A DNA stretch of 40,307 nucleotides, from positions 1 through 40,307 of the forward strand of contig CAZVBA010000002.1 in the NCBI GenBank assembly GCA_964625325.1. The letters run 5' to 3'. Numbering within the stretch: position 1 is the first letter of the stretch; the number at the start of each line of letters is the position of its first letter. Positions 3,777 through 37,048 of this stretch are shown in pieces. This DNA is from an uncultured Candidatus Saccharibacteria bacterium (lineage in GTDB: Bacteria > Patescibacteriota > Saccharimonadia > Saccharimonadales > CAYVSP01). The notes under the pieces are model-generated. The model worked only from the letters and a program-made list of their open reading frames with translations. It was not told the DNA's origin and did no database searches. Both the position numbers and the translations under genes were made by a program.

Positions 3777-4283
3777 ATGGTTAAAAGTCATGTACACATC
3801 ATAAAGATGGGCGGCACTATTGAATTTATTGACCCAGCCTATGATGCAATGAACAAGAAACTCATGCATCTTGATACCACTATCGAAAGCTATCTTCAGA
3901 ATCTTATCCAGCCCCACTTCAACTTTAGTGTTGAAACAGTCATAACGAAGGATAGTCGTGATATCGACGAGAGTGACCGCAACAAACTAGCTGAAGCTAT
4001 ACAGAGCACACCGCATACCAATATCATAGTCACACACGGAACCTTTACAATGAAACAGACGACCGAATTCTTAGAAAAACAGGGGCTAACTGACAAGAAA
4101 GTAATTTTGACCGGTTCAATGATTCCTATAACGGGCTTTACCGCGTCAGACGCAGGCTTCAATTTAGGTTTTGCGATCGCCTCATTTGCGAGTATTGACC
4201 CAGGTGTTTACCTATCAATGAATGGCGGCATATTTACTGCCGCAGATGTTGATAAAAACGAGGAACTCCTAAGGTTTGAGTAG
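3777..4283 (+). CDS. Asparaginase/glutaminase N-terminal-domain-like protein (short form)
   Basis: 168 aa. KMGGTIEF (GGT motif), VTHGTFTM (canonical HGTDTM) and LTGSMIP (canonical LTGAMRP). TATAAT 3765-3770 lies 6 nt upstream of the ATG. Confidence 0.6.
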   Translation: MVKSHVHIIKMGGTIEFIDPAYDAMNKKLMHLDTTIESYLQNLIQPHFNFSVETVITKDSRDIDESDRNKLAEAIQSTPHTNIIVTHGTFTMKQTTEFLEKQGLTDKKVILTGSMIPITGFTASDAGFNLGFAIASFASIDPGVYLSMNGGIFTAADVDKNEELLRFE

Positions 4284-13524: not shown

Positions 13525-16194
13525 ATGGATAAGGTGCCTGCGGCCAAGCTAAAAAAACTAGCAATTATTGATGGGAAGTCGGTTTTCTACCGTGGCTACT
13601 ATGCCATGCCCAATTTGGCGACACCTGATGGCACGCCGACCGGCGGTGTTTTTGGCTTTGCCACCATGGCTCTGGAAGTGCTGCGCCGGCTCAAGCCGGA
13701 TTACGTCTGCGTGGCCTGGGACAAGCCCAAAACTAACATCCGCAAACGCCTAAAGATTTATCCTGAATACAAAGCCGGCCGCAAGCCGGCGCCGGCTGAT
13801 TTCTACGAACAAGTGCCGGTACTGCACGAGCTGCTGGATGCCTTTGGCTGGCCGCTTTATGAGCTGGACGACTACGAAGCCGACGACATCATGGGTACTT
13901 TAGCCATTCAGGCGGCCGAAAAGGGCATTGAAACCATGCTAATTACCTCTGATTTAGACATGTTGCAACTGGTCCACCCCAAAGTCCACGTTTACGCCCT
14001 TAAAAAGGGCCTCAGCAACATAGAATTGTTCCGCCCGGAAACATTTATTTTGAAATATGGCATCACGCCCGAGCAATTCTTAGACCTAAAAGCCCTGAAA
14101 GGCGACAGCTCGGACAATATTCCGGGCGTGCCTGGCATCGGCGAAAAGGGCGCGCTGGAGCTGCTCAAAGAGTACAAGACGCTTGATAATGTTTATAAAA
14201 ACTTGGACCTTATTAAAGAAAGTGTGCGCAAAAAGCTGGAAGCCGGCAAGGACCTGGCGTACTTGAGCAAAAAATTAGGTGCGATTTGGACGGATGCGCC
14301 GATTAAGCTTGATTTGAAAGAAGTTGACGGCACCAAGGTGGACCCAGCGCGGTTGCAGAAACTGCTGCAAAAACTGCAATTCCGCAGCCTGCTGCGCCAG
14401 CTGCCGGAGGTCATGAAAGTCAGTCTGGAGGATCACGCCAAAGCGCAGGAACGGTTTGATGTCGAGCTCAACATCGGCAAAGGAACGGTAATAACCAACG
14501 ACGACGACCTTAGCAAGGTTAAACTGGCGGCCACACCAGCGTTGGTGGTGCATAGCCGGGCCGGTAGTAAGCACGGTCGTGACCCTCAACTCCTGATACT
14601 TTCCAGCGAAGCCAAGCAAACCGTGGTGCTGGACCTGGAAAAGCTTAGCCGCGACGCCGTGCGTGACGCGGTAACCCGTAACCTGTCACCTGTAACCAAA
14701 TTAGTCGGCTATGATCTGAAATACACCCTCAAAGTCTTGATTGAACTAGGCGTGGAATTGCCGCCGGTGGGACATGATGTGCTGGTAGGTGCTTTCCTGA
14801 TCAATGCCTTGTTGCGCGCCCAGAGCTTGACTGACCTGGCCACAGCCGACCTGGACTACGACGGCTCGCCGTTTGAAGACCTGGATAAGGATGAACTGGC
14901 TAACCGGGCGGCCGAGATTGCCGGCGTCCTGACGGCACTTTATGATTACCAGACCAAGCAACTGGCCAAGACACCTAAGCTCGTCAAACTGGCCCGCGAC
15001 CTCGAGTGGCCGGTCATTCCGGTGCTGGCGCGCATGGAGTACGAGGGCATCGAGCTGGACACTAAGTATTTGAAGAAAATGAGCGCCCAGCTGGACGATA
15101 TGATCCTGAAGATCGAACAAGAGATTTACGGCCACGCCGACCATGAATTCAATATTGGTTCACCGGCACAACTGGCTGACGTTTTATTCACCAAACTCAA
15201 CCTGCCGACGCAGGGGATTAAGAAAGGCAAGACCGGCTACTCTACCGCCGCCAGCGAGCTGGATAAACTACGCCCCGTCCATCCGATTATCAATCTCATC
15301 ACCAGCTGGCGCGAGGTTACCAAGCTCAAGAACACCTATGTTGACGTCATGCCGAAGATGGTGGATGAGAAGTCGCGGCTGCACACCACCTACGATCTAA
15401 CCGTGGCCCAAACTGGGCGGCTGAGTTCAAATGATCCTAACCTGCAGAACATTCCGGTACGCACCGACCTGGGCAAGCAAATCCGCACCGCCTTTGTGGC
15501 CGGTCCGGGCAAAATGTTTGTCAGTGCTGATTATTCCCAGTTTGAACTGCGCATTGCCGCCTATTTATCCAATGACCAGCGGCTGATAGATATGTTTAAC
15601 AAGGATGTGGATGTTCATTTGGCCACTGCGGCTGAGGTTTATGGCCGGGCCGAAGAGGATGTTACTAAAAATATGCGTCGAGAGGCTAAAGTCCTGAATT
15701 TTGGTGTCATGTATGGTCTTGGTCCGCACGGTATGACTCAGCAAACCAGCCTGAATTACGAACAAGCCAAGAACTTTATCGATAAATACTTTGAGATTCG
15801 ACCCAAGCTGCGGGTCTACATCGAATCGGTCCAGGAAAAAGCCAAAAAGGACGGCTATGTTGAGAATATTTTTGGCCGACGTCGCCCAACGCCGGATATC
15901 CATTCCAGCAATTTCGCGGTGCGCGAGGCCGCCATGCGCCAGGCCGTCAACATGCCCTTCCAGGGCAGCGCCGCTGACATTATGAAGCTGGCTATGATTG
16001 CCGTCGATAAAAAACTGGAGAGTAAGGACTGCAAGGTGCTGCTGCAAATCCACGACAGCCTGATTCTGGAATGCGACGAGAAAGAGGCTGAAAAAACCGC
16101 CAAGCTACTCAAAGAAACCATGGAGAATGTCCATAAACTGCCCGTAAAACTGACAGTCGACACCAGTATCGGCAAAAACTGGGGCGAACTTTAA
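13525..16194 (+). CDS. polA: DNA polymerase I
   Basis: 889 aa. The 5'-nuclease domain is present (GDSSDNIPGVPGIGEKGA). The polymerase motifs are present (DYSQFELRIAA, REAKVLNFGVMYG, QIHDSLILE). The central 3'-5' exonuclease motifs look degenerate. Confidence 0.95.
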   Translation: MDKVPAAKLKKLAIIDGKSVFYRGYYAMPNLATPDGTPTGGVFGFATMALEVLRRLKPDYVCVAWDKPKTNIRKRLKIYPEYKAGRKPAPADFYEQVPVLHELLDAFGWPLYELDDYEADDIMGTLAIQAAEKGIETMLITSDLDMLQLVHPKVHVYALKKGLSNIELFRPETFILKYGITPEQFLDLKALKGDSSDNIPGVPGIGEKGALELLKEYKTLDNVYKNLDLIKESVRKKLEAGKDLAYLSKKLGAIWTDAPIKLDLKEVDGTKVDPARLQKLLQKLQFRSLLRQLPEVMKVSLEDHAKAQERFDVELNIGKGTVITNDDDLSKVKLAATPALVVHSRAGSKHGRDPQLLILSSEAKQTVVLDLEKLSRDAVRDAVTRNLSPVTKLVGYDLKYTLKVLIELGVELPPVGHDVLVGAFLINALLRAQSLTDLATADLDYDGSPFEDLDKDELANRAAEIAGVLTALYDYQTKQLAKTPKLVKLARDLEWPVIPVLARMEYEGIELDTKYLKKMSAQLDDMILKIEQEIYGHADHEFNIGSPAQLADVLFTKLNLPTQGIKKGKTGYSTAASELDKLRPVHPIINLITSWREVTKLKNTYVDVMPKMVDEKSRLHTTYDLTVAQTGRLSSNDPNLQNIPVRTDLGKQIRTAFVAGPGKMFVSADYSQFELRIAAYLSNDQRLIDMFNKDVDVHLATAAEVYGRAEEDVTKNMRREAKVLNFGVMYGLGPHGMTQQTSLNYEQAKNFIDKYFEIRPKLRVYIESVQEKAKKDGYVENIFGRRRPTPDIHSSNFAVREAAMRQAVNMPFQGSAADIMKLAMIAVDKKLESKDCKVLLQIHDSLILECDEKEAEKTAKLLKETMENVHKLPVKLTVDTSIGKNWGEL

Positions 16195-24375: not shown

Positions 24376-24648
24376 ATGCCGACTACATTTGAAGTTGGCC
24401 CATTCCGACCCGGATGCGACAGAGAAGCTACGCTAGGCTATCCTCTAATGAGCTTTGCCGCTTGGGCGGTTCGACACGGTTGTACCATCGAACACGTGGA
24501 TTGCTACACGGTTATCCATGATCCAAACATTCCGGCCAAGCAGCCCGTTGCAGATATTGGCGAGATGCAAACCCGAGCCATTGAAGCCCTAAGGCACCCG
24601 ACGACTCCCTATGCGGAGGCAGCGGCGCCATTTCTTCAAGTCGCTTAA
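24376..24648 (+). CDS. Hypothetical small protein
   Basis: 90-aa ORF with promoter and SD. Its stop overlaps the stop of the convergent gene (TTAA). Confidence 0.45.
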   Translation: MPTTFEVGPFRPGCDREATLGYPLMSFAAWAVRHGCTIEHVDCYTVIHDPNIPAKQPVADIGEMQTRAIEALRHPTTPYAEAAAPFLQVA

Positions 24649-24884
24649 CTAATTCGGATCACCAACCGCTTGTCTGTTTCGCAGAGTTCCTGTAGCTGAT
24701 GCAAGTGCAGCCGCAAGGCACCGGCTAGAGCCGCGCTGTGCACGCCGATGATAATTTGCTTGGGTCCAACCGCCACCTCAACTTCAGCCTTAAACTGTTC
24801 ACGAACATAGCCCTTAATCTGTTTTATCTCCGGCGGTTCGGCAAATTTGGATTTATCCAGTAAATCTCCCAGGTTAGTTGCCAT
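24645..24884 (-). CDS. Small protein, DUF721/DciA-like (tentative)
   Basis: 79 aa. The ...GPKQIIIGVHSAALAGALRLHLHQLQEL...RLVIRI pattern resembles DUF721 proteins. Weak, by eye only. Confidence 0.45.
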   Translation of the reverse strand: MATNLGDLLDKSKFAEPPEIKQIKGYVREQFKAEVEVAVGPKQIIIGVHSAALAGALRLHLHQLQELCETDKRLVIRIS

Positions 24885-24917
24885 GCTTCTATTGTACCTT
24901 TACCCACAAGATTCGCA

Positions 24918-25014
24918 CTTGGATGCAGTACAAGGAAGCCGTGAAGCACGGAATGAGACGTACAAATGGTACGTTGATTGAGTACTGGAACGGCTGACAC
25001 CGTAATGCGCCAAG
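24918..25014 (+). repeat. Copy A of a two-copy ~97-nt imperfect-palindrome element (candidate structured RNA)
   Basis: Ungapped 91-nt core alignment to the reverse complement of 36768-36858 gives 73/91 identities (hand count). Six compensatory pair changes preserve five helices. The strand given shows only the orientation relative to copy B; the transcribed strand is unresolved. Confidence 0.7.
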
Positions 25015-25075
25015 AACAGCAGCGGCGTGACCAGCTATGCTGGACAGCAGGCTGCTGTGGTGCGAAACTTGGGTT

Positions 25076-30354: not shown

Positions 30355-31059
30355 ATGGACGGCCTACTTCTTATTGATAAACCTTCTGGTTGGACGTCGT
30401 TTGACGTCGTTGCTAAGGTTCGTGGCCTGTTGAAGCAATCGGGGGTTGCCAAGCCGAAAGTAGGGCACACTGGTACGCTGGACCCGCTGGCCACTGGTTT
30501 ACTGGTTTTAGTAATCGGTAATTACACAAAACGGGCGGCTGAATTCTCCAAACTCGATAAAACCTACGAAGTAACGATGAAGCTGGGGCAGACCAGTACC
30601 ACTGGCGACGCCGAAGGCGAACTCACAACAGTAAAACACTCCTATTCTGTGCTATCGCATCAAATAGAAACGGTTTTTAAGGAGTTTGAAGGCGAGATTA
30701 TGCAGACGCCGCCACAATATTCGGCTATCAAAGTTGACGGGCAGCGAGCCTATAAGCTGGCCCGCAAAGGGCAGAAAGTTGAGTTGGAACCGAGGAAGGT
30801 TACAGTTTACCGGTTACGGGTTACCGAATACGAATACCCGGAAGTGAAGTTTACGGCTAAAGTCAGCAGCGGCACCTACGTCCGCTCGCTGGTAGAGGAT
30901 ATCGGCACCAAACTGGGTACCGGCGCCTATATGTCCGACCTTCGCCGCACCAAAGTGGGCAAGTTTACAATAGAAGAGGCCCAGCAAATCGAGGGTATTG
31001 ACATCTCTAGGGTATTGACAAAAATAGATAAAGCTATTAAAATATATACTCATGAGTAA
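30355..31059 (+). CDS. truB: tRNA pseudouridine(55) synthase
   Basis: GLLLIDKPSGWTSFDVV, GHTGTLDPLATGLLVL, PPQYSAIKVDG. TATACT 30342-30347 lies 7 nt before the ATG. Confidence 0.92.
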   Translation: MDGLLLIDKPSGWTSFDVVAKVRGLLKQSGVAKPKVGHTGTLDPLATGLLVLVIGNYTKRAAEFSKLDKTYEVTMKLGQTSTTGDAEGELTTVKHSYSVLSHQIETVFKEFEGEIMQTPPQYSAIKVDGQRAYKLARKGQKVELEPRKVTVYRLRVTEYEYPEVKFTAKVSSGTYVRSLVEDIGTKLGTGAYMSDLRRTKVGKFTIEEAQQIEGIDISRVLTKIDKAIKIYTHE

Positions 31060-34704: not shown

Positions 34705-36708
34705 ATGAGTCCAAACAATCCCAAAAAACCAAATAACAACCCTAACCCTATGCGCAGCGCTAGTCGCGGCGCGGCGATACGCGCCCAACGGCGCAGCCAC
34801 GAGGACGCAACCACTAAAATGGATCAGTACCTCAGTACCAACGCGGCCCCAGAAGCCCGACGCGCCAACGTGATAGATGACAGCCCTCGGCTGCGCATTA
34901 TCGGTCTCGGCGGCATGGACGGCGGCGGCTCCAAGAACATGATAGTCGTCGAGTACATGAATGACGCCGTCGTCATCGACTGTGGCAACGACCTTGGCGT
35001 TGATTTACCAGGCATCAACTACGGTATTTGCGACACCAGTTACCTGGATACCATCGCTAACAAAATCCGCGCTTTCGTGATGACACACGGCCACCTTGAC
35101 CACATTGGTGGGTTACCGCACATCCTGCCTAAGTACCCGGGCATACCGGTCTACGGCAGCCGCTTTACTATCGGCCGTGTCGAGGAAATTTTCCAAAACT
35201 ACGGCCTGCCAATGCCGCAAGGCTTCGAGCTAAAAACCGTCATCATGAACGAAGACAACCACGAACGGTTAAAAGTGGGTAGCTTCTTCATTGAATTGGT
35301 ACGCGTAACCCACTCTATCCCGGGAAGCACCGTGGTAGTGGTGGATACGCCAGTCGGGCGAGTCATCAATACCGGTGACTTCCGTTTTGACCCTAACCCA
35401 CTAGACCACGAACGCACCGATACCGAGCGCTTAAAGCAACTCGGTACTGAAGGCGTGCTGGCGCTGCTCTCCGAGAGTACCACCAGCGAGCGACCAGGCC
35501 GTACGCCTAGCGAGTCGACCATTGAGCCGAGCTTCATTGACATCATGGATCGGGCACCGGGACGCATTTTTTGCGGCCTGTTCTCGACTAACATGAACCG
35601 TGTTCAGATGATCATCAATGCCGCCGTGCACCACAACAAGAAAGTGGCCATGGACGGTCGCAGCATGATGAGTACGCTGGAAATGGCCGTGCGCAACGGC
35701 TTCATTAAAGTGCCCAAGGGCACCTTTGTGCCGATTGCCAGCGTGCCAAACATGAAGGACCAGGATGTCGTCATCGTAGCCACCGGTAGCCAGGGCGAGC
35801 CCAACTCAGCGCTGGTGCGCATGAGCGAAGGCGACCACAAGCACATCAAACTCAAAGCCCAGGATACGGTGATTTTGAGTTCGACGCCAATTCCGGAGAG
35901 CGGCAACGACGCTTTGATTGGCAACATGGTCGACGATTTGATGCGCAAAGGCGTCCACGTCTACCGCCATGAAACCCACGAACTGGACGGCGCCGGACCG
36001 CTGCACGTCAGTGGTCACGCTAGCATCGAAGAGTACCGTGAGATGATTACCATGACCAAGCCGAAATTCTTCGTGCCTATCTACGGTGCCTACCGCTCTA
36101 AGCAGCGCCACCTGGAGATTGCCGTTGAAGAGGGCATTCCGCGCAAGAACACTATCAATGCCGAGAACGGCGAGGTGCTGGTACTGAGCAAAGACAAGAT
36201 GGAATCAGCCGGCCAGGTACCGCACGGTACGGTGCTGGTGGACCAAACCGGCGCTGTCGTCAGCAACATCGTCATCAAGGACCGATTGATGCTGGCTGAA
36301 GAAGGCCTGGTAGCGGTCGTCTTAACCTTAGACAAAAAGACTGGTGCCTTGCTAACCAGCCCGGATATCATCAGTCGCGGCTTCATCTACATGCGTGATA
36401 GTGAAGAGCTAATGAATGATTTTCGCACCGAGCTACGCCGTGCTGTCGGCCAACGCTTCAAGCGCATCGATTTAGACCGTTTCAAGCAAGAACTCAAAGA
36501 ACACGTTACGCATTTCTTGTTTGAGCAGACCGGCCGTAGCCCGATTGTCATCCCAGTGGTCAACGTGATTGGCAAGAACTCCGAGAAGCCGCACAGCCAG
36601 AACGGCAACGAGGCACCCAAGACCCATGAAGAGCAGGCTGAAGATTTGCAGAAGCGCTTCGCTGCCATGCGCGCCAAGTTACTCAACCAAGACGCCCGAA
36701 TAGACTGA
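34705..36708 (+). CDS. rnj: Ribonuclease J
   Basis: The metallo-beta-lactamase motif HGHLDHIGGLP is present. The beta-CASP region is present (GDFRFD, ATGSQGEP, HVSGHAS). Basic N- and C-terminal extensions are present. AAAGGA lies 5 nt upstream. Confidence 0.92.
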   Translation: MSPNNPKKPNNNPNPMRSASRGAAIRAQRRSHEDATTKMDQYLSTNAAPEARRANVIDDSPRLRIIGLGGMDGGGSKNMIVVEYMNDAVVIDCGNDLGVDLPGINYGICDTSYLDTIANKIRAFVMTHGHLDHIGGLPHILPKYPGIPVYGSRFTIGRVEEIFQNYGLPMPQGFELKTVIMNEDNHERLKVGSFFIELVRVTHSIPGSTVVVVDTPVGRVINTGDFRFDPNPLDHERTDTERLKQLGTEGVLALLSESTTSERPGRTPSESTIEPSFIDIMDRAPGRIFCGLFSTNMNRVQMIINAAVHHNKKVAMDGRSMMSTLEMAVRNGFIKVPKGTFVPIASVPNMKDQDVVIVATGSQGEPNSALVRMSEGDHKHIKLKAQDTVILSSTPIPESGNDALIGNMVDDLMRKGVHVYRHETHELDGAGPLHVSGHASIEEYREMITMTKPKFFVPIYGAYRSKQRHLEIAVEEGIPRKNTINAENGEVLVLSKDKMESAGQVPHGTVLVDQTGAVVSNIVIKDRLMLAEEGLVAVVLTLDKKTGALLTSPDIISRGFIYMRDSEELMNDFRTELRRAVGQRFKRIDLDRFKQELKEHVTHFLFEQTGRSPIVIPVVNVIGKNSEKPHSQNGNEAPKTHEEQAEDLQKRFAAMRAKLLNQDARID

Positions 36709-36721
36709 GGCACCAGCGCCG

Positions 36722-36767
36722 CGCCAACCTGACGCTCAGCTAAACTGAGCGTACTGTTGGCGTTTTT
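36722..36767 (+). terminator. Rho-independent terminator of rnj
   Basis: CGCCAAC/GTTGGCG outer stem and ACGCTCAG/CTGAGCGT inner stem, loop CTAAA, then TTTTT (36763-36767). Confidence 0.8.
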
Positions 36768-36861
36768 GGCGGATTGCGACGTCAGAATCTCCAGTACTCA
36801 CTCAACGTACCACCTGTACGCCTCGTTCCGTGCTTCAATTCTTCCTTGCACTCCATCCAAA
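36765..36861 (-). repeat. Copy B of the two-copy ~97-nt imperfect-palindrome element (candidate structured RNA)
   Basis: It is the reverse complement of copy A (24918-25014). Its closing-helix 3' arm, CCAAA, is the complement of the rnj terminator T-tract. Confidence 0.7.
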
Positions 36862-37019
36862 CGCTGGCGTCTCACGCTTCTTAATATGCTAGCCGGAAAA
36901 GGGGCTTGACGAGGGGGCGGGGATTTGCGAAGATACATCTCGCAAAATGTGTATCTCTTGGCAAAAAACAGGGCTATCCTTCGGGGGAGCAGAGCCTAAA
37001 TAAAAGCGACTAGCCTTAA

Positions 37020-37048
37020 TTGACAAAATGGCAAGCATTTGTTATACT
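37020..37048 (+). promoter_or_regulatory. Consensus-like sigma-70 promoter for ORF 37075
   Basis: TTGACA (37020-37025), 17-nt spacer, TATACT (37043-37048). Confidence 0.7.

Follow-up and report, generated by a model that had tools for sequence, protein, structure and literature searches.

A previously uncatalogued, structured and apparently mobile repeat family of Saccharibacteria, with copies beside mutM and rnj

Two intergenic spacers of an uncultured Candidatus Saccharibacteria bacterium, one upstream of mutM (copy A) and the other downstream of rnj (copy B, on the opposite strand), share a sequence that codes for no evident product, and the question is what this sequence is and how it came to lie at both sites. 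The window analyzed here is the whole stretch of 40,307 nt, and all coordinates refer to it unless a retrieved locus (L number) is named. The repeat formed by the two spacers is the longest in the window (145 nt, 72%, 24919-25063 versus 36716-36860), all others being 34 nt or shorter, and the similarity is far beyond chance. A first-pass annotation had described a two-copy element of about 97 nt, and had offered two readings, a structured RNA not yet described and a family of palindromic repeats.

With positions n numbered such that copy A is 24920+n and copy B is 36859-n, and with a core of 91 nt, copy A was aligned without gaps to the reverse complement of 36765-36861, and the recount reproduced the 73 identities and 18 differences reported for the core. 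The five compensatory pairs of the core (6:87, 10:83, 19:73, 20:72, and 21:71), the sixth outside it (-2:94), the wobble-compatible changes at 22:70 and 38:54, and the two differences in the loop of helix H5 were all recovered. The same hairpin was predicted for both copies, at -35.6 kcal/mol for A and -33.6 kcal/mol for B, with z-scores of -4.3 and -3.1 against shuffled sequences. Four differences do lie outside helices H1-H5 as had been counted, but they are not all unpaired, since positions 34 and 58 pair with covariation across the family. Similarly, the stretches n 23-33 and 55-69 are conserved as described, but they are not loops, since compensatory pairs occur there in paralogues.

The full unit is a three-way junction of about 165 nt, composed of an outer helix P1, a long arm P2, and a hairpin P3, because the similarity between the copies runs on 3' of the 97 nt and both P1 and P3 covary in the family alignment. 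The 97-nt unit is therefore correct as the long arm but not as the whole element. The features of both copies are as follows.

24905-25073, plus strand: copy A, whole element, about 169 nt (P1 covariation; terminal arms of the class found in the subfamily with target-site duplications)
24905-24918, plus strand: A, 5' arm of P1 and left terminal inverted repeat, CACAAGATTCGCAC (pairs with 25060-25073)
24918-25014, plus strand: A, long arm P2 with H1-H5, the 97-nt element annotated earlier (fold and covariation)
24943-24953, plus strand: A, 5' half of the conserved core, GAAGCACGGAA (search pattern; internal 5-bp helix covaries in diverged paralogues)
24979-24989, plus strand: A, 3' half of the conserved core, TGAGTACTGGA (same pattern and covariation)
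25017-25057, plus strand: A, second hairpin P3 with conserved internal loop GCGG... / ...GCAGG (stems covary)
25060-25073, plus strand: A, 3' arm of P1 and right terminal inverted repeat, GTGCGAAACTTGGG (2 nt before the mutM ATG)
36709-36871, minus strand: copy B, whole element, about 163 nt (directly after the rnj stop codon at 36706-36708, convergent to rnj)
36765-36861, minus strand: B, long arm P2 with H1-H5 (core halves 36826-36836 and 36790-36800)
36722-36762, minus strand: B, second hairpin P3 (covariation)
36862-36871, minus strand: B, 5' arm of P1, GACGCCAGCG (pairs with 36709-36718, CGCTGGTGCC)

The fold is kept by compensatory substitutions in more than 100 copies. When H1-H5 and two further pairs were tested in 36 sequences of the subfamily to which the window copies belong, 94.8% of cells could pair, as compared with 22-40% for slid partners; double changes were found in 20 of the 31 pairs, and the covariation score was reached by none of 500 shuffles. 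All of H1-H5 covaried in these homologues, bearing out the proposal that selection acts on a secondary structure. For the full three-way structure, represented by 21 diverse sequences, 87% of cells were paired and 42 of 54 pairs showed double changes. These included every pair of P1 (11/11 in the 21 homologues), 4 of the 5 pairs in the distal stem of P3 (96% of cells paired), and 6 of the 7 in its proximal stem.

Along the long arm, H1-H4 are followed by a pseudo-symmetric core, with halves GAAGCACGGA and GAGUACUGGA, and then by H5. Compensatory changes in diverged paralogues support a central 5-bp helix in the core and the pairs A29-U72, G30-C71, A32-U69, C33-G68, and A37-U65. The register, which follows from compensatory changes in paralogues lacking the exact motif, would read as tandem G.A pairs, a bulged G, the 5-bp helix with a central mismatch, a second bulged G, and again tandem G.A pairs; these would be followed by an A-U and an N-N' pair, a further tandem G.A, and H5. 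As in loop E/sarcin-ricin (bulged-G) motifs and in tandem sheared G.A modules, the core has AGUA opposite GAA and three 5'-GA/5'-GA steps seen in the sequence, which we take to resemble classic protein- or ion-binding RNA modules. A strict bulged-G (sarcin-ricin) register, with C71-G34, A70.G35, and U69.A36, was rejected, since the paralogues covary as A29-U72, G30-C71, A32-U69, and C33-G68.

The helices are also asymmetric between strands, with 81 G.U pairs versus 20 A.C mismatches, most of this signal being supplied by two near-fixed wobble pairs. The excess of G.U over A.C favors the plus strand of A and the minus strand of B as the folded strand, and together with the conserved tandem G.A motifs it fits selection on an RNA strand, or at least on a single strand. 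Several structural variants were seen among the copies: one with an apical insertion of about 80 nt (L063, 4340-4525), two with an extra hairpin in the 3' strand of the long arm (L010, 8505-8693; L037, 2485-2673), and a truncated 5' half-copy lying directly upstream of a full copy (L078, about 4180-4245).

The element is not restricted to two copies, as had been assumed, but belongs to a large multi-copy family. The 22-base pattern GAAGCACGGAA-N16-36-TGAGTACTGGA, scanned over metagenome and species-representative genome contigs, was found at 36 metagenome loci and 57 genome loci. The latter came from about 39 assemblies, all but one of which were MAGs of Candidatus Saccharibacteria, Saccharimonadales, or Patescibacteria, and a single MAG had as many as four copies with the exact pattern. 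A covariance model for the long arm, the check that the first-pass annotation had suggested for further homologues, was run on the retrieved loci and on the window. It gave 109 matches in the retrieved loci, with up to five copies per MAG and with tandem pairs among them; about 13 of the 109 were diverged copies lacking the exact pattern. Copies A and B were the sole matches in the window, even with the filters off. The GC content of the element is about 50%, and it is thus not AT-rich.

Two architectures were recognized, the three-way junction seen in A and B and a hairpin-only form with a longer basal stem. For the latter, adjacency to tRNA genes was considered on account of a 5' flank CGAACCC and was rejected, no tRNA genes being present. 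A shorter relative of about 135 nt, with P1, the long arm, a small hairpin, and an identical 22-nt core, was found in Paenibacillaceae-type contigs. It lies convergent to a 5S rRNA gene, in the gap between spoIIIAE and spoIIIAF, and in the gap between a histidine kinase and a response regulator gene, and the three different contexts indicate that the family is dispersed in the Paenibacillaceae lineage too. The Paenibacillaceae form occurs at L012 (1-95 and 208-246), L033 (4295-4333), and L077 (4430-4468).

No known RNA family accounted for these sequences, in agreement with the first-pass annotation. Neither the window nor any of 17 related loci reached the gathering threshold of an Rfam 15 model; with the limit relaxed to E<=10, the two spacers returned chance matches alone (ceN46, astro_FSE, and YrlB, 11-15 bits), and at E<=1 the matches of the Paenibacillus form were likewise at chance level. 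Likenesses to SRP domain IV, 5S rRNA, 6S RNA, the L11-binding region, and T-box stem I were considered and rejected because no model matched, and ARAGORN found no tRNA or tmRNA genes. A literature search for the core sequence, Saccharibacteria noncoding RNAs, and Saccharibacteria MITEs found no description of the element. Orphan motifs of Rfam (HEARO, raiA, and the Weinberg/Breaker sets) are also intergenic, with covarying multihelix folds and conserved internal loops; unlike them, the present element shows hallmarks of transposition and matches no Rfam 15 model even at E<=10.

Comparison with the closest relatives shows that copy A is an insertion. On one side of it a divergent 79-aa ORF begins (minus strand, 24645-24884) and on the other lies the mutM ATG (25076); the insertion is between a conserved TATTGTA motif and this ATG. 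At the mutM sites of relatives whose MutM is 76-87% identical, the spacer is about 27-40 nt long and lacks copy A in L002, L003, and L005, and in L001 and L004 other ORFs take the place of the element. A search of all five loci found no family copy anywhere in them. Several observations on this site stand by themselves. A hot spot of variation lies in the spacer before mutM (L001, 1380-1847; L004, 7479-8367; copy A in the window), with a 155-aa ORF in one relative and ORFs of 156 and 129 aa in another, none of which has a Pfam match. Close to the start codon of the 79-aa ORF, at a distance of 5-11 nt, there is a conserved TATTGTA(C) motif (window, 24890-24896; L002, 3664-3670; L005, 9980-9990), which in the relatives, but not in the window, is followed by TACAAT; the latter precedes the mutM ATG by 11-12 nt. 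This arrangement suggests that the mRNAs could be very short or leaderless on both strands.

Copy B is likewise an insertion relative to the closest relatives. It is missing after rnj in five relatives (L099-L103, RNase J 82-89% identical), one of which is a MAG with five family copies elsewhere. One of them, L100, has the adjoining 140-nt spacer and the promoter in common with the window, yet lacks B. Synteny after rnj among the window, L042, L055, and L086 had raised the possibility of vertical inheritance, which was rejected because the five closer relatives lack B. The recurrence after rnj could be due to chance or to an insertion-site preference. ACTGA/ATTGA around a 310-bp segment at B was considered as a target-site duplication and was also rejected; it is a coincidence of the rnj stop codon with the -35 box of the next gene, since L100 has the spacer without B.

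The region after rnj has further features. In the distant Saccharibacteria L042 (2492-2741) and L055 (2379-2688), whose RNase J is 38% identical to that of the window, rnj is closely followed in each case by two tandem elements, separated by 40-100 nt and convergent to it as B is. The closest relatives have a promoter for the next gene after rnj (TTGACA, 17 nt, TATAAT or TATACT), near consensus, and in L099, L101, and L102 the rnj stop TGA lies inside its -35 box (TTGACA). Its counterpart in the window is at 37020-37048 (TTGACA, 17 nt, TATACT, with TG), and copy B together with the spacer accounts for its shift of about 310 nt downstream. Beyond B there is also an inverted repeat AAGATACATCTCGCAAAATGTGTATCTCTT (36930-36965), which is 95% conserved in L100 (5040-5078) and whose sole Rfam match was a chance-level hit to YrlB (E=3.9).

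The flanks of older and younger copies offer further evidence on mobility. One subfamily, with P1 arms CACGAGTTTCGCAC and GTGCGAAACTCGTG, has been amplified recently: three of its copies in one MAG are 95% identical with unrelated flanks, and the boundaries of similarity between the young copies coincide with the ends of P1. Just outside P1, perfect 5-bp direct repeats were found (TCTTA, GGCGA, TAGGA, GGGGT, and ACTAA), and a sixth young copy has GCGTT/ACGTT, matching at four of five positions. Taking the six together, the flanking repeats at fixed offsets agree at 29 of 30 positions, far more than chance would allow; as judged from the sequences, this is the signature of a 5-bp target-site duplication. 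Such duplications indicate insertion events and not gene duplication. They were found in this one subfamily only. An unbiased scan of 92 copies across the family observed 9 duplications versus 1-9 in shifted controls, a nonsignificant result that is confounded by palindromic 4-mers inside P1, and in the hairpin-only form duplications were missing even from two copies of one MAG that are 98% identical.

The P1 arms constitute terminal inverted repeats of 10-16 nt, and outside the young subfamily many of them start with CAC(A/G) and end with (C/T)GTG. The left arm of A (CACAAGATTCGCAC) has at most two mismatches to CACGAGTTTCGCAC, and each P1 arm of A agrees with that of the target-site-duplication subfamily at 12 of 14 positions. 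The flanks of A match at three of five bases (TTACC/TTATG), leaving only TTA of a possible duplication, and those of B have no matching direct-repeat bases. Tandem copies were present in L042 and L055. A parent element with the same ends would carry the termini CACRAGNTTCGCAC...GTGCGAANCTYGTG. Neither the window nor the surroundings of the other retrieved copies yielded a transposase or an autonomous partner, and for a phage or plasmid origin blastn returned chance-level short matches alone (E>=0.1) and the scan of viral contigs was empty.

Prokaryotic MITEs have been defined as elements below 500 bp with terminal inverted repeats of 4-30 bp, situated between genes and giving transcripts with stable stem-loops, in which direct repeats are present in young copies only and are lost in older ones (PMC10969869). 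The properties of the present element match this published definition (PMC10969869), for it is noncoding and about 165 nt long, has terminal inverted repeats, and occurs as dispersed copies with insertion polymorphism. We therefore favor, with a probability of roughly 55%, the interpretation that A and B are old, independent insertions of a noncoding, nonautonomous, MITE-like element of about 165 bp whose terminal repeats are formed by P1. Between the two possibilities raised in the first-pass annotation, the insertion polymorphism at A and B and the 5-bp duplications in young copies favor the repeat family over a dedicated RNA gene. ERIC/IRU of enterobacteria, Correia of Neisseria, BOX/RUP of pneumococcus, and QMITE of Coxiella are MITEs that fold as RNA. 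The element has in common with them a noncoding length of 100-200 bp, terminal inverted repeats, duplications in young copies (here those of one subfamily), dispersed intergenic copies in either orientation, insertion polymorphism, and predicted stem-loop transcripts.

Several observations nevertheless sit uneasily with a MITE-like element. In a classical MITE, the terminal repeats are the conserved part. Here the reverse is seen: P1 varies between subfamilies, its arms drifting and covarying, whereas an internal, nonpalindromic core and the fold are conserved. Unlike the MITEs named above, the element is conserved phylum-wide and reaches the Paenibacillaceae, a depth that is unusual for a selfish repeat; it also differs from them in its GC content of about 50%, in the lack of a parent insertion sequence among the loci searched, and in having no sequence similarity to phage or plasmid records. 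The restriction of the duplications to one subfamily, the failure to find a transposase in the window or near other copies, and the fit of the G.U/A.C asymmetry and tandem G.A motifs to selection on an RNA strand also count against the MITE-like interpretation.

If the MITE-like interpretation is correct, a trans-encoded enzyme would integrate the element at a 5-bp staggered cut. The GA-rich core may serve as the recognition platform of a probably dimeric protein, either the mobilizing enzyme or a host RNA-binding factor, which would explain why the core is conserved while the stems drift. After insertion, the element would be carried passively in host transcripts. If transcription starts from the TATTGT box at 24890-24895, copy A would make up the whole 5' leader of mutM, with P1 closing 2 nt ahead of the ATG. 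At the other site, copy B would place the reverse complement of a stable hairpin, about 160 nt long, immediately behind the rnj stop, the hairpin itself being on the antisense strand; relatives have the -35 box of the next gene at this position.

The strongest competing explanation, which we nonetheless regard as unlikely, is a family of genes for trans-acting sRNAs of about 100-170 nt, whose GA core would bind a probably dimeric cellular protein and whose duplicates would be kept for a benefit to the host. The strong covariation, the invariance of the 22-nt core across the phylum and into Paenibacillaceae, and the strand asymmetry of 81 versus 20 are all consistent with it. Certain positions also recur in several genomes, namely upstream of gltX, whose start is abutted (L034, L043, L081), and behind rnj (L042, L055, L086), and several copies lie 16-20 nt downstream of extended -10 boxes (e.g., TGTTATAAT). 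The context as a whole, however, argues against a dedicated RNA gene. The intergenic elements tend to occupy their spacer completely, P1 reaching up to a start or stop codon; the -10-like hexamers enriched upstream are equally frequent on both strands, often just 5-30 nt of spacer remain upstream of P1, and terminators follow 7 of 55 and 6 of 33 copies, which equals background; sequence scans gave no convincing signal of an own promoter or terminator. The absence of both window copies from the closest relatives and the 5-bp duplications, which indicate insertion, argue against sRNA genes as well.

A broader possibility, to which we assign a somewhat smaller chance still, is that the element represents the nucleic-acid half of an undescribed CPR mobility or RNA-protein system, with the core bound by a dimeric protein whose gene lies elsewhere. 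It could then be the handle of a structure-recognizing, possibly RNA-mediated insertion machinery that produces the 5-bp duplications, or a self-spreading sRNA that titrates a host factor. As a mobile structured RNA, it would be expected to conserve its internal fold, and not its termini, from Saccharibacteria to Paenibacillaceae, which would explain the pattern observed.

It is rather improbable that the element acts as folded single-stranded DNA mobilized by an HUH or tyrosine recombinase, in the manner of REP/RAYT, IS200/IS605 repeats, or attC sites. Conservation of structure over stem sequence, the conserved mismatches and bulges, and the strand asymmetry would be expected for single-stranded DNA too, and the hairpin-only form lacks target-site duplications. 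REP/BIME with RAYT and IS200/IS605-derived repeats resemble the element as dispersed extragenic hairpins that are recognized by shape and have strand-specific structure. REP units are 20-40 nt, and the element is far larger. IS200/IS605 and REP/RAYT systems are not known to create target duplications; the three-way-junction form, by contrast, has 5-bp duplications in its young copies, and no Y1/HUH, RAYT, or TnpA gene was seen in the window or near the copies, so the combination of duplication-free insertion and a Y1/HUH gene that marks these systems was not found. Unlike attC sites, the copies are scattered in both orientations and end in CAC...GTG without R boxes, and neither the same-orientation arrays of integrons nor R/L boxes (RYYYAAC...GTTRRRY) were present.

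Still less credible is a cis-regulatory leader, that is, a riboswitch or protein-binding attenuator in which the 3' arm of P1 would occlude the downstream translation start. The position of A, ending 2 nt before the mutM ATG, and of the copies abutting the gltX start in L034, L043, and L081 would suit a leader, and the three-way junction, with its conserved internal loops, is reminiscent of riboswitch aptamers. However, the orientation relative to neighboring genes is essentially random: among 68 copies, the flanking ORFs were (-,-) in 26, (+,+) in 15, (-,+) in 14, and (+,-) in 13, and the downstream gene was co-oriented in just 29. A constant 5' UTR position before co-oriented, related genes, as in riboswitches, was not seen. 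The downstream genes have no common function, and in the flanks of the copies no conserved neighbor gene or cargo was found, no family recurring beyond a few loci. Moreover, B is convergent with rnj and has nothing downstream of it, and the same holds for the copies in L042, L055, and L086; the element is also missing upstream of mutM in relatives. The leader reading is thus largely refuted by the orientation statistics.

A small conserved protein encoded across the element deserves practically no credence: short ORFs do span both copies on both strands (for example, on the antisense strand MAHYGVSRSSTQSTYHLYVSFRAS... in A corresponds to ...DVRISSTHSTYHLYASFRAS... in B), but every frame has 21-25 amino acid changes among its 28 differing codons, the differences fall at 9, 15, and 16 by codon position with no third-position bias in any of the six frames (as the first-pass annotation had held), both copies have stops in four of six frames with minus-strand frames 0 and 1 open in A, conservation extends past the ends of the ORFs, and indels in the family break the frames.

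Apart from this family, the window has a 29-nt inverted repeat, 90% complementary, at 14669-14697 and 30798-30826, with GTAACC-like heptads (CGGTAACCCGTAACCTGTCACCTGTAACC); one of its arms is inside polA and the other inside an unannotated ORF.

The genomes of Saccharibacteria are tiny and densely packed, and are regarded as poor in selfish DNA. A family of elements of about 165 bp at several to many copies per genome would therefore be noteworthy, as would its insertions beside the core genes mutM, rnj, and gltX and the precise fold that it keeps. The invariant, pseudo-symmetric, GA-rich core of the element would imply a protein partner, and drifting termini around a conserved interior are not what the usual picture of MITE recognition would predict. 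The family was not cataloged before, is Saccharibacteria-wide and structured, and is apparently mobile. If this is true, it would provide a marker of recent genome change in Saccharibacteria and a well-supported candidate structured RNA motif for Rfam, and would supply leader and 3'-end structures with a possible effect on the expression of housekeeping genes.
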